This document shows, piece after piece, positions 33,321 to 56,238 of a DNA stretch of 64,000 nt. A program made the translations under genes and the position numbers. The stretch's first letter is position 1, and every line of letters begins with the position of its first letter. A model generated the notes under the pieces. That model worked only from the letters and a program-made list of their open reading frames with translations. It was not told the origin of the DNA and did not search any database. Source of the stretch: Escherichia coli (GTDB taxonomy: Bacteria; Pseudomonadota; Gammaproteobacteria; Enterobacterales; Enterobacteriaceae); assembly GCF_029227855.1 (NCBI RefSeq), contig NZ_CP074356.1. The stretch is one strand, 5' to 3'.

Positions 33321-33699
33321 TGTTTTCCTTGCGGGTTGTCCCGAGCCTCTTTGACGAATGTAATTAAAATGTTGAATCAAAATACATAGATATTAAATAT
33401 AATCGTGGCAAATTTTATTCATTAAATCAATTAAATCACTTAAACCTGCGGGTCATTTCGTAATTACATTAATTAAAAAACTTAAAACCATTAAATAAAT
33501 AAAAAACCACTAACTCTATGTGAAATAAATCAAAATTTCACGCTGCAATACTCCTTAGGATGTATAGCGAAAGGAGAAAAAGATATACCTCGATCGCCCC
33601 CCTTTCTCCCAAGTGAAAATAAAAGGTTATCAGTTTGCAACATCGAACAACATTTGTTGCAAATCGATAACAACATGCACCTTCAGGATACTATTTATT

Positions 33700-41358: not shown

Positions 41359-41504
41359 TCCTCTGATTTACAAAACACGCTAATTCGTCTTCCATAAACC
41401 ATGACGATTAAGATTTATACATAATGCGCTACATTGAGGAATTCCCTGAATGTGACGCAAATCACTTCAAAGAGTGAGCAACAGTCAGTATCATCATGTG
41501 AGTT

Positions 41505-52790: not shown

Positions 52791-54896
52791 TTAGTGCGCG
52801 CCTTTCGCCTGCGCCACGATCTCCTCGACATTTTCCGGCATTGGCTCATACGGCGTTTCTTTCGCCGTTGGCTTCGGCTCTTTCAATGCCGCCAGTGCCG
52901 TCTTAATCGAGAACAGCGCCAGAACCACCACGACCACCATAAAGAAGATGGTTAACCCGGCATCCAGACGGTTGTTGAACACCAGTTGCGCCAGCTGTGA
53001 CTCAGTATACTGCGACGGAATATTGCCGCTGTCGATCATTGCCTGGAACTTATTAGCAATGGCCAGGAAGCCGACTTTCGCATCCGGGCTAAACGCTTTC
53101 TGCCAGCCTGCGGTCAGGGTACAAATCAGCAGCCAGGCCGTTGGTACCAGCGCCACCCAGGCGTAACGTTGACGTTTCATTTTGAACAGCACCACAGCAC
53201 AGAGCATCAGCGCCATCCCTGCCAGCATCTGGTTGGCAATACCAAACAGCGGCCACAAGGTGTTAATACCGCCCAGCGGATCGACCACACCCTGATGGAG
53301 GAAATAGCCCCACGCCAGTACGCACAGCGCCGTTGCCAGCAGGTTAGCAGGCAGTGAATCGGTCCGTTTCAGGCCCGGAGACACCACGCCCAGCAGATCC
53401 TGCAACATAAAGCGCGCAGCACGCGTACCTGCATCCACCGCCGTCAGAATAAACAGTGCTTCAAACAAAATGGCGAAGTGATACCAGAACGCCACATCCA
53501 TCATGCCGCCCAGCGCGCCGTGCAGAATGTAGGCCATCCCCACCGCCAGCGTCGGCGCACCGCCCGCACGGGAAATGATCGACTGTTCACCCACTTCGCT
53601 GGCAATCTGGTTGAGCGTATCTGGTGTAATGCTAAAGCCCCAGCTACTCACCACCTGCGCGGCAGAAGCGACTACATCCGCCGTCCCTGCAGGAGCCAGC
53701 ACCGCCATCGGGCTGTTCATGGCGAAGTACACACCTGGATCGATGATACAGGCGGAAACCAGCGCCATAATCGCCACGAAGGATTCCATCAACATCCCAC
53801 CGTAGCCGATAAAGCACGCCTGCCCTTCGTTCGCCAGCATCTTCGGCGTGGTGCCGGAAGAGATCAGCGCATGGAAGCCAGACACCGCGCCACAGGCGAT
53901 GGTGATAAACAGGAACGGGAACAGGTTACCGGTCCATACCGGGCCAGTGCCATCGACAAATTTAGTTAGCGCAGGCATGGTCAGCGTCGGGCGCATAATC
54001 AAAATGCCCACCGCCAGACCGACGATAGTCCCGATTTTCAGGAAGGTAGAGAGGTAGTCACGCGGAGCCAGCAGCAACCACACCGGCAGCACCGCCGCCA
54101 CAAAACCGTAACCCACCAGCATCCAGGTCAGCTGCACGCCGGTAAAGTCAAAGTACGGTGCCCAGGTCGGACTTTCTGCCACCCAGCCGCCAGAGATAAT
54201 GGCGAAAATCAGGAACACCAGACCAATCACCGACACTTCGCCAATACGCCCCGGACGCAAATAGCGCAGGTAGATCCCCATGAACAGCGCCAGCGGAATG
54301 GTGAACGCAACGGTATACGTTCCCCACGGGCTATGAGTCAGGGCTTTCACCACGATCATCGCCAGCACGGCAAGGATAATGACCATGATCATAAAGCAGG
54401 CCACCAGCGCAATCACCCCGGCGGTTGGCCCCATCTCTTCTTTGACCAACTCACCCAGCGAGCGACCATCGCGGCGCGTAGAAACAAACAGCACCATGAA
54501 ATCTTGCACCGCACCGGCGAGAACCACCCCAGCGAGCAGCCAGATCATCCCCGGCAGGTAGCCCATTTGCGCTGCCAGCACCGGCCCCACCAATGGACCT
54601 GCTCCGGCGATGGCCGCAAAATGGTGACCGAACAGCACTTTCTTGTCCGTCGGCACATAGTCCAGCCCGTCGTTATGGCGCACCGCGGGCGTCATACGCG
54701 TCGGGTCAACCGCCAGCACATTTTTGGCGATATACAGACCATAAAAACGGTAAGCGATCAGATAGATACAGACCGACGCCACCACAATCCACAGCGCATT
54801 GATCTGTTCCCCACGATTTAAAGCAATATATCCCAGAGCAAATGCTCCCATTACAGAGAGCACTGTCCAGACGAGGTATTTCCCTGATTTGTTCAT
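52791..54896 (-). CDS. cstA: Carbon starvation protein A (peptide/pyruvate transporter family)
   Basis: 701 aa polytopic membrane protein. Confidence 0.95.
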   Translation of the reverse strand: MNKSGKYLVWTVLSVMGAFALGYIALNRGEQINALWIVVASVCIYLIAYRFYGLYIAKNVLAVDPTRMTPAVRHNDGLDYVPTDKKVLFGHHFAAIAGAGPLVGPVLAAQMGYLPGMIWLLAGVVLAGAVQDFMVLFVSTRRDGRSLGELVKEEMGPTAGVIALVACFMIMVIILAVLAMIVVKALTHSPWGTYTVAFTIPLALFMGIYLRYLRPGRIGEVSVIGLVFLIFAIISGGWVAESPTWAPYFDFTGVQLTWMLVGYGFVAAVLPVWLLLAPRDYLSTFLKIGTIVGLAVGILIMRPTLTMPALTKFVDGTGPVWTGNLFPFLFITIACGAVSGFHALISSGTTPKMLANEGQACFIGYGGMLMESFVAIMALVSACIIDPGVYFAMNSPMAVLAPAGTADVVASAAQVVSSWGFSITPDTLNQIASEVGEQSIISRAGGAPTLAVGMAYILHGALGGMMDVAFWYHFAILFEALFILTAVDAGTRAARFMLQDLLGVVSPGLKRTDSLPANLLATALCVLAWGYFLHQGVVDPLGGINTLWPLFGIANQMLAGMALMLCAVVLFKMKRQRYAWVALVPTAWLLICTLTAGWQKAFSPDAKVGFLAIANKFQAMIDSGNIPSQYTESQLAQLVFNNRLDAGLTIFFMVVVVVLALFSIKTALAALKEPKPTAKETPYEPMPENVEEIVAQAKGAH

Positions 54897-55016
54897 AGTT
54901 GTTATCCGTGTGCGTGTCCATAGAGATGTTACATTTTGTTTCTATAACATCTTTGTGCAATTTAACAACACAGCAACCATGTAAATCGGAGTTGAAACCA
55001 ATATTTAACTTAACAA

Positions 55017-55032
55017 TGTTAACTCGATCACT
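55017..55032. promoter_or_regulatory. Candidate CRP site upstream of cstA
   Basis: TGTTA-N6-TCACT, 8/10 match to TGTGA-N6-TCACA, about 120 bp upstream of cstA ATG. Confidence 0.3.
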
Positions 55033-55076
55033 CCGTTAACCGAGTTTTCCTGCAATCTCATTTAATTCTGTCGGGC

Positions 55077-56238
<1,162 letters not shown>

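Follow-up and report, generated by a model that had tools for sequence, protein, structure and literature searches.

A documented CRP site and a probably incidental inverted repeat in the promoter region of Escherichia coli cstA

It is highly probable that the spacer between entH and cstA in Escherichia coli carries the well-studied promoter and regulatory sequences of cstA ahead of a short leader, that its CRP site is real, that its inverted repeat is incidental, and that the GGA motifs available to CsrA are located downstream of the repeat. The region that had been called a leader is thus mostly promoter DNA, dense in CRP, Fis, and ArcA elements. To the published record, the analysis adds the location of the known CRP site at -92.5 relative to a transcription start that is found in three independent genome-wide data sets, and selection on this site across the Enterobacteriaceae. 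The stakes are small, and a supposed leader hairpin is removed as a false lead.

Locus and sequence comparison

All positions refer to the window, i.e. the whole stretch of 64,000 nucleotides of E. coli DNA that was analyzed. The genes and the spacer between them are arranged as follows:

52791..54896, minus strand: cstA open reading frame, 701 aa
54897..55076, 180 bp: entH-cstA intergenic spacer, the exact gap between both open reading frames
55077..55490, minus strand: entH open reading frame, 137 aa, the stop codon of which borders the spacer

In a megablast comparison with complete E. coli genomes, entH and cstA, the latter being the pyruvate-transporter gene of E. coli, are annotated at this locus, and the stretch is present in 5419 of the 5426 genomes; the strain itself belongs to a less common lineage of the species, with at least 99% identity over 601 bp in only 11 of the 5419. 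The spacer is AT-rich (37% G+C). The initial annotation had described two motifs in it, both with correct coordinates: the inverted repeat, with agatgtta (54924..54931) and taacatct (54945..54952) on either side of a 13-nt spacer (54932..54944), and the CRP-like motif TGTTA-ACTCGA-TCACT at 55017..55032. The placement of the repeat about 30 bp upstream of the cstA ATG also fits, given that it ends 27 nt 5' of this codon. Across the spacer and its flanks, K-12 MG1655 and the window differ at three of 221 nt, which all fall within the 180-bp spacer but outside both motifs, and because the differences are so few and leave the motifs untouched, the K-12 literature is directly applicable.

Transcription start and core promoter

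The following elements were assigned to the start and the core promoter of cstA:

54932, minus strand: main cstA transcription start (G), 36 nt 5' of the ATG, equivalent to 629081 in U00096.2
54897..54932, minus strand: cstA 5' UTR, 36 nt, from start mapping; predicted to be unstructured
54939..54949, minus strand: -10 region TGTTATAGAAA, placed by its distance from the mapped start, with conserved TG, T, and TAGA
54963..54968, minus strand: -35 element TTGTTA, within the conserved TTGTTAAAT, from its position relative to the mapped start; columns 90-100% conserved in 31 genera

Cappable-seq of MG1655 yields five plus-strand starts in U00096.2, namely 629063 (score 2.9), 629071 (2.7), 629081 (36.0), 629094 (2.1), and 629128 (8.3); the minor start at 629063 corresponds to position 54950 of the window and reaches ~8% of the main signal (2.9 versus 36). 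The cstA entry of Kim (2012) places the start at 629081 and the gene at 629117..631222, with a 36-nt 5' UTR, and its upstream 51-mer ends with ...AGAAACAAAATG; the upstream sequence given for the gene in the same source is ...GATGTTATAGAAACAAAATG. Given that the start, the UTR length and the upstream sequence in this source agree, the conversion of U00096.2 coordinates to those of the window is fixed. Position 629081 is also reported by Cho (2014), with 530 reads in four conditions and with sigma-70, sigma-S, and sigma-32 assigned to it, and cstA-ybdD is described there as a unit separate from the entCEBAH unit. The cstA mRNA used in the CsrA modeling of Leistra (2018) starts 39 nt 5' of the ATG, with the sequence AAUGUAACAUCU, and points to the same promoter. 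The label of leader that the initial annotation gave to the whole region therefore does not hold: the 5' UTR comprises only the 36 nt at 54897..54932, and the remainder is promoter and upstream regulatory DNA. The predicted fold of positions +1..+73, which include the leader and the early coding region, is no better than that of shuffled sequences (z = +0.74).

The core promoter consists of TTGTTA and TGtTATAGAAA, with a distance of ~16-18 bp. The -10 region TGTTATAGAAA can be read either as an extended -10 element (TG-n-TATAGA) or as TAGAAA at -12..-7, and the final T is missing in both frames, an architecture that fits a weak, sigma-70-type, activator-dependent promoter. A TG-n-TATAGA arrangement occurs in Aeromonas as well. 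A promoter scan tool called no site in the cstA promoter region because position 6 of the -10 element is not T, contrary to the rule that the tool applies. A scan for terminators in 54700..55400 detected no terminator-like site, that is, none between entH and cstA, so that read-through transcripts from entH are conceivable.

The CRP site and the overlapping Fis motifs

The CRP site of cstA is correct and has already been documented in the literature. Together with the Fis matches, it is located as follows:

55017..55032, minus strand: cAMP-CRP binding site, AGTGATCGAGTTAACA on the cstA strand, with its center at -92.5 relative to the main start; from identity with a ChIP-seq site, a position weight matrix (PWM), and conservation
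55035..55049 and 55026..55040: two overlapping matches to the Fis motif GNNNRNNNNNYNNNC from a pattern search; candidate sites covering 55026..55049 overall

The exact 16-mer AGTGATCGAGTTAACA lies under the cstA CRP ChIP-seq peak of ETEC H10407, and the commonest CRP positions in the same study are ~-40.5 or ~-92.5 (Haycocks et al., 2015; PMC4287617). Deletion of crp abolishes PcstA-lux (Gasperotti et al., 2020; PMC7730263), and cstA was recovered by CRP genomic SELEX. The statement of Gasperotti et al. (PMC7730263) that cites Schultz and Matin (1991) locates the CRP site within -200..-120 of the ATG, ~80 nt before the start. The literature (PMC7730263) thus bears out the view, expressed in the initial annotation, that cstA is CRP-dependent and CsrA-controlled. 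On the cstA strand, the motif reads AGTGA-TCGAGT-TAACA and spans -136..-121 from the ATG; with a center at 55024.5 and the start at 54932, it is positioned at -92.5, one of the distances compatible with the face of the helix (-41.5, -61.5, -72.5, -82.5, or -92.5).

We also considered the possibility that the motif is a chance match and that the action of CRP is indirect or at another place. Agreement with the TGTGA-N6-TCACA consensus is limited to 8 of the 10 core bases, and with up to two mismatches this consensus is found 14 times in the window versus 26 expected, which is not above chance; moreover, the previous study (PMC7730263) spoke of a 'putative' site at an 'unusual' distance from the start. 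Because simple consensus counting was uninformative, a PWM was built from 106 other in vivo CRP sites in the ETEC ChIP-seq table. With this PWM, the cstA site scores 11.6 bits, ranks fourth among the 64,000 positions of the window, exceeds 37 of the 106 training sites, and is the only match above 3.3 bits in the intergenic region.

For the conservation analysis, cstA loci were fetched from 80 species. In ~30 genera of Enterobacteriaceae, the best match to the CRP matrix within the 260 nt 5' of cstA has the form AGTGATC-NNNN-TTAACA and is centered 125-129 nt before the ATG. Across 31 genera, conservation amounts to 80-100% in the columns of the AGTGATC and TTAACA half-sites and to 30-70% in the four central columns, and the departure of TAACA from the consensus is likewise conserved between genera. 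The half-sites do not vary among six E. coli strains (those of the window and K-12 among them) and E. albertii, and the sole change inside the site among these strains affects the spacer, in E. coli strain 8178. Given the ChIP-seq peak that carries the exact motif, its position at -92.5, the conservation of the half-sites across genera next to a freely varying spacer, and the fact that it is the sole candidate between entH and cstA, the CRP-like motif is the genuine CRP site, and the probability of a chance match appears negligible. Activation of cstA by cAMP-CRP would then proceed from -92.5, a position computed here for a site with published occupancy and dependence, and might involve a class I-like contact with the alpha C-terminal domain of RNA polymerase.

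The second of the Fis matches (55026..55040) overlaps the CRP site, in agreement with the two predicted sites, Fis1 and Fis2, one of which has been described as overlapping the CRP site (PMC7730263); the pattern searched for here is the one employed in that study. In the same study, DNA-affinity capture with the -300..-1 fragment yielded Fis as the sole candidate whose deletion altered expression.

The inverted repeat

The inverted repeat is probably incidental. Its arms are located as follows:

54945..54952: upstream arm, AGATGTTA on the cstA strand, at -20..-13; promoter DNA, outside the main transcript
54924..54931: downstream arm, TAACATCT on the cstA strand, at +2..+9; part of the near-invariant TAGAAACAAAATGTAACATCT

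The repeat as a whole spans -20..+9, with its spacer at -12..+1; the upstream arm shares the TG and the initial bases of the -10 region, and the downstream arm belongs to the very beginning of the mRNA. Given that this arm is not transcribed from 54932, the repeat cannot form a leader hairpin in the main transcript. According to the initial annotation, a mapped start downstream of both motifs or CRP binding elsewhere would have spoken against its reading; the start turns out to be 3' of the upstream arm of the repeat, so that this condition applies in part.

The length of the repeat is unremarkable. Perfect inverted repeats of at least 8 bp with a loop of 3-20 nt are present in 5.9% of the dinucleotide shuffles of the 180-bp spacer and in 27 of the 355 tiles of 180 nt into which the window was divided; because shuffles and tiles match its length this often, the repeat alone is not significant. 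Among the 31 genera, a perfect repeat is confined to E. coli and four Citrobacter loci, with 0-6 Watson-Crick pairs left in 24 other genera. There is hardly any variation in the downstream arm, and the outer three bases of the upstream arm are unconstrained. Within 26 distinct sequences, no covariation was detected (score 0.068 versus 0.067 after shuffling, with 229 of 500 shuffles scoring as high), and 76.9% of the cells are paired compared to 76.0% in shuffles. Uncompensated changes were found in both arms, namely C-to-A in the downstream arm of E. coli PM22 and A-to-G in the upstream arm of E. albertii. With a transcription start inside the repeat, a loop devoid of GGA, and neither conservation nor covariation of the repeat, the role of a regulatory leader element that had been suggested for it is not supported.

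Two scenarios in which the repeat is functional were weighed: (i) an RNA hairpin in the cstA leader that affects 5'-end stability or the access of CsrA or the ribosome, in transcripts that are initiated upstream or read through from entH, and (ii) an operator in the DNA at which a dimeric repressor would block the -10 region and the start. With respect to the first scenario, the repeat would fold, if transcribed, into a stem of 10 bp with -10.3 kcal/mol (z = -3.3), and the minor start at 54950, which could be fed by a promoter predicted from RpoD holoenzyme SELEX (TTTACA-15-TAAATT), would include most of the upstream arm and generate a 5'-terminal stem in a small fraction of the transcripts; the lack of a terminator-like site after entH is compatible with read-through as well. 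However, the main start at 54932 leaves the upstream arm out, the minor start has only ~8% of the main signal, and entCEBAH and cstA-ybdD have been called separate transcription units. The loop, UAGAAACAAAAUG, contains no GGA and so lacks the hallmark of a high-affinity CsrA site in a hairpin loop, the CsrA sites of cstA are placed outside stem-loops in the literature, the upstream arm is not conserved, and no covariation is seen between the arms. Taken together, these observations make the RNA hairpin very improbable. The repeat does not resemble an intrinsic terminator of entCEBAH either, with two G-C pairs among the eight of the stem, followed by CUCUAUGG, and no U tract, and an Rfam scan of 54700..55300 with E-values up to 1 returned only a spurious match to a eukaryotic lncRNA (E = 0.71).

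As for the second scenario, positions -20..+9 are typical of a repressor, the centers of the arms are 21 bp apart, which corresponds to two helical turns, and the downstream arm is within a nearly invariant block. The length of the repeat is nevertheless at the chance level, and because conservation of the upstream arm is restricted to Escherichia and Citrobacter, no symmetric operator has been preserved. In addition, DNA-affinity capture with the region -300..-1 produced Fis as the only candidate that changed expression (PMC7730263). An operator for a dimeric repressor is accordingly a very improbable explanation of the repeat. A by-eye check against consensus sequences for Cra, PdhR, TyrR, Lrp, Fur, IHF, and the mar-box revealed no fit to the repeat or to the conserved block.

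ArcA and the ATGTTA motif

Instead of a functional unit, the repeat is most likely a by-product of ATGTTA being present twice in opposite orientations; the downstream copy is part of a deeply conserved block at the start site, and the upstream copy is specific to the Escherichia/Citrobacter lineage. This motif leads to ArcA, by which cstA is directly repressed, with 21.5-fold derepression without ArcA (Park et al., 2013; PMC3798270). The ArcA ChIP-seq peak is at 628999, in one replicate only (Park et al., 2013; PMC3798270), and the published box maps to the window as follows:

54991..55011, minus strand: ArcA-P box AAGTTAAATATTGGTTTCAAC of Park et al. (2013), converted from 629002-629022 in U00096.2 (PMC3798270); -79..-59 from the main start

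ArcA prefers direct repeats with 11-bp spacing, to the extent that a spacing of 12 bp abolished protection at putP; overlap of its sites with promoter elements is usual, and 3-5 repeats per site are frequent. In the published box at 54991..55011, the direct repeats are spaced by 11 bp, and the first of these elements (DR1) scores at least 6 bits in 80% of the orthologues. The location of this box at -44..-24 given by Park et al. (PMC3798270) implies a start at 629046, which is absent from all three start data sets.

A 10-bp ArcA repeat matrix was derived from the 235 repeat elements in Table S4 of Park et al. (2013). On this matrix, the upstream arm of the inverted repeat (ATGTTATAGA, cstA strand) scores 10.2 bits, the downstream arm (ATGTTACATT, opposite strand) 10.7 bits, and the -35 region (TTGTTAAATT) 11.9 bits. 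Altogether, the 180 bp contain four ArcA-repeat-like matches of at least 10 bits compared to 0.32 expected, and the underlying pentamers are similarly in excess, with six occurrences of TGTTA/TAACA (1.0 expected) and seven of GTTAA/TTAAC (0.83 expected); none of these three counts was exceeded in any of 1000 shuffles. The copy at the start site scores at least 8 bits in 97% of the orthologues, and the upstream copy at least 6 bits in only 39%. Judging from these sequence comparisons, the simplest account of the repeat would be that its two opposed ATGTTA copies represent a motif that is over-represented in the cstA promoter and matches the ArcA-P direct-repeat element. The arms do not show the spacing of an ArcA-P site, being inverted and 21 bp apart rather than 11 or 22 bp, and among the arms, the -35 copy, and the published ArcA box there is no 11-bp register, save for one distance of 77 bp (7 x 11), the meaning of which is doubtful. 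Because the copies are out of this register, we treat binding of ArcA at the repeat as conjectural.

The conserved block over the start

The block TAGAAACAAAATGTAACATCT, at -12..+10, is 90-100% conserved in 31 genera, and the arrangement TATAGA-GATGTAAC is present even in three of four Aeromonas loci. Such conservation would seem to exceed the apparent needs of a weak -10 element and a start base. On the opposite strand, the block consists of two tandem 10-bp units, ATGTTACATT and TTGTTTCTAT, a tandem that may resemble the sites of OmpR-family response regulators (OmpR, CpxR, and RstA).

It is conceivable, although rather unlikely, that the block is an operator of a response regulator of this family, either ArcA-P acting from the upstream box or at a non-canonical spacing, or OmpR, CpxR, or RstA, which would repress cstA by promoter occlusion; the inverted repeat would then be a lineage-specific side effect of the extra ATGTTA copy in E. 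coli. Apart from the conservation itself, which extends to the TGTAAC near TATAGA in Aeromonas, this explanation draws on the 10.7-bit score of the antisense ATGTTACATT on the ArcA matrix, with at least 8 bits in 97% of the orthologues, on the direct, 21.5-fold repression of cstA by ArcA, and on the tendency of ArcA sites to overlap promoter elements with 3-5 repeats. Against it, the units are spaced by 10 bp compared to the 11 bp of ArcA, for which 12 bp was already sufficient to abolish protection at putP, the likeness to OmpR, CpxR, and RstA sites is a putative one, and constraints on the promoter and the initial transcribed sequence could explain the conservation. Furthermore, only the upstream box was assigned by Park et al. 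(PMC3798270), and the ArcA ChIP peak comes from a single replicate. If the block does function as an operator, pyruvate uptake would be shut off by occlusion of the start site, and the conserved block could explain why cstA is so strongly repressed under anaerobic conditions.

Post-transcriptional control

The initial annotation had proposed a search of the leader for the GGA motifs bound by CsrA. This search yielded four GGA motifs in the transcript, all of them downstream of the inverted repeat (54866..54921):

54917..54921, minus strand: AUGGA, candidate CsrA site 1, from the GGA scan; in the leader, only in Escherichia and Citrobacter
54904..54913, minus strand: ACGGA within GCACACGGAU, candidate CsrA site over the Shine-Dalgarno sequence, read from the sequence
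54881..54885, minus strand: AGGGA, candidate CsrA site 3, codons 4-6, from the GGA scan
54866..54870, minus strand: CUGGA, candidate CsrA site 4, codons 9-11, from the GGA scan

Two further GGA trinucleotides, at 55033..55035 and 55047..55049, are upstream of the start and hence absent from the mRNA. Among 35 orthologues from Enterobacteriaceae, 31 have A.GGA at -20..-4 from the ATG, and in 33 the glycine codon 5 is GGG, although neighboring codons vary synonymously. The cstA transcript reportedly has three or four CsrA sites, one of them over the Shine-Dalgarno sequence, and an exact match to GCACACGGAU is said to have been noted at cstA. In the literature, CTGGA appears among the secondary CsrA sites, with a study of cstA as its source, and the CsrA sites of cstA are described as GGA motifs outside stem-loops, which fits the predicted unstructured leader. 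CsrA would accordingly be expected to act through AUGGA, ACGGA (over the Shine-Dalgarno sequence), AGGGA, and CUGGA; the control as such is published, and the sites are assigned here by sequence.

In a 2026 preprint, the small RNAs OmrA and OmrB are reported to repress a cstA translational fusion. A search for duplexes of OmrA and OmrB with the cstA 5' region gave -21.1 kcal/mol compared to a mean of -16.1 (sd 2.7) for shuffled sequences, without a convincing site.

Comparison with known systems

The ArcA-P boxes are 18-bp sites in which two direct repeats of the TGTTA type follow each other at a distance of 11 bp. ATGTTA is likewise present in either arm of the inverted repeat, each arm scores more than 10 bits, and cstA is a published direct ArcA target; in contrast to such boxes, the arms are inverted and 21 bp apart, and the published box of cstA is 40-60 bp further upstream.

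The leaders of the glgC type, which are repressed by CsrA, have GGA motifs at which binding blocks the Shine-Dalgarno sequence. In cstA, GCACACGGAU likewise overlaps the Shine-Dalgarno sequence and is accompanied by three GGA motifs within ~55 nt. Unlike in the glgC-type leaders, the GGA sites of cstA are outside hairpin loops, and the inverted repeat is none of them.

At class I promoters, CRP is located at -61.5, -72.5, -82.5, or -92.5, on the same face of the helix, and the center of the cstA site at -92.5 conforms to this series. The cstA promoter differs from the class I promoters in the conserved, non-consensus TAACA half-site and in the ArcA and Fis sites that adjoin or overlap the CRP site. 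Compared to the documented CRP site of E. coli cstA, the site in the window belongs to the same gene, consists of the same 16-mer, and occupies the same positions, -136..-121 from the ATG, with no material difference between the two.

Conserved sequences over the cstA start site

The coordinates of cstA and of its promoter elements are as follows.

52791..54896, minus strand: cstA
54932: main cstA start, 36 nt before the ATG
54963..54968: -35 region
55017..55032: CRP site, centred at -92.5
54897..55076: entH-cstA spacer (180 bp)

The block TAGAAACAAAATGTAACATCT(C) at 54923..54944, which stretches from the -10 region as far as about +10, is 90-100% conserved across 31 enterobacterial genera; a comparable TATAGA-GATGTAAC arrangement is present in Aeromonas. 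This degree of conservation seems to exceed what a weak core promoter would need. Read on the opposite strand, the block consists of two tandem 10-bp units, ATGTTACATT and TTGTTTCTAT. The spacer as a whole contains 6 copies of TGTTA/TAACA (1.0 expected) and 7 copies of GTTAA/TTAAC (0.83 expected), and for either motif none of 1000 shuffles gave a count as high. Copies of these types are found in the CRP half-site, directly downstream of the CRP half-site, in the -35 and -10 regions, and over the start.

Between positions 54700 and 55300 (601 bp), an identity of at least 99% to the window is reached by only 11 of the 5419 complete E. coli genomes, the others being 95-99% identical, which places the window in a lineage that has been sequenced less often. 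One of its differences from K-12, C instead of T at 54957, falls in the promoter spacer.

Position of the ArcA box and cstA starts

The published ArcA box of cstA (window 54991..55011; U00096.2 629002..629022) was numbered -44..-24 (Park et al., 2013; PMC3798270), a numbering that would place the start at 629046 (window 54967); the three start-site data sets do not report this start. Relative to the mapped start, the box spans -79..-59, downstream of the CRP site and upstream of the -35 region. Cappable-seq additionally reports minor starts at window positions 54950, 54942 and 54919 and a secondary start at 629128 (window 54885; score 8.3), which lies 11 nt into the cstA coding sequence, on the A of AGGGA.

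Post-transcriptional elements

Codon 5 of cstA (54882..54884), a glycine codon, reads GGG in 33 of 35 Enterobacteriaceae, with synonymous variation in the neighboring codons, a pattern that fits selection on AGGGA as a CsrA motif and not on the protein. A 2026 bioRxiv preprint reports repression of a cstA translational fusion by the small RNAs OmrA and OmrB, as well as the recurrence of cstA in RIL-seq data. At the 5' end of the cstA mRNA (54830..54932), the early coding sequences AAUACCUC..CUGG and GCUCUGGGA are candidates for pairing with the 5' end of OmrA/B; the duplex energy, however, has no clear advantage over shuffles.

The CRP site and its surroundings in other genera

Three matches in the window score above the cstA site with the CRP matrix, which was built from 106 ETEC ChIP-seq sites.

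CRP-matrix matches scoring above the cstA site
41451..41466: 15.7 bits, TGTGACGCAAATCACT
33519..33534: 13.6 bits
3077..3092: 13.2 bits

The first of these is the reverse complement of the rnk site in the ETEC CRP ChIP-seq table (PMC4287617).

Adjoining the cstA CRP site, at 55030..55045, is the palindrome ACTCGGTTAACGGAGT (14 of 16 positions), which coincides with both Fis-motif matches and is Escherichia-specific and absent from Citrobacter. In many genera (cstA loci L009, L019, L044 and others), the conserved CRP site is followed 17 bp downstream by a second CRP-like sequence (for example, TGTGATGTAAATCCCC, 11.4 bits), which lies about 110 nt before the cstA ATG. At this position, E. coli has TTGTTAAGTTAAATAT, which scores poorly but contains the ArcA repeat that Park et al. 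assigned.

In the Enterobacter/Lelliottia group (L014, L021, L030, L042 and L044), a GGT-N3-ACC palindrome, TGGTTTGACCAC, separates the CRP site from the -35 region; its E. coli counterpart, ATTGGTTTCAAC, keeps just one half. The palindrome is of the type that GntR-family regulators recognize, the pyruvate sensor PdhR among them.
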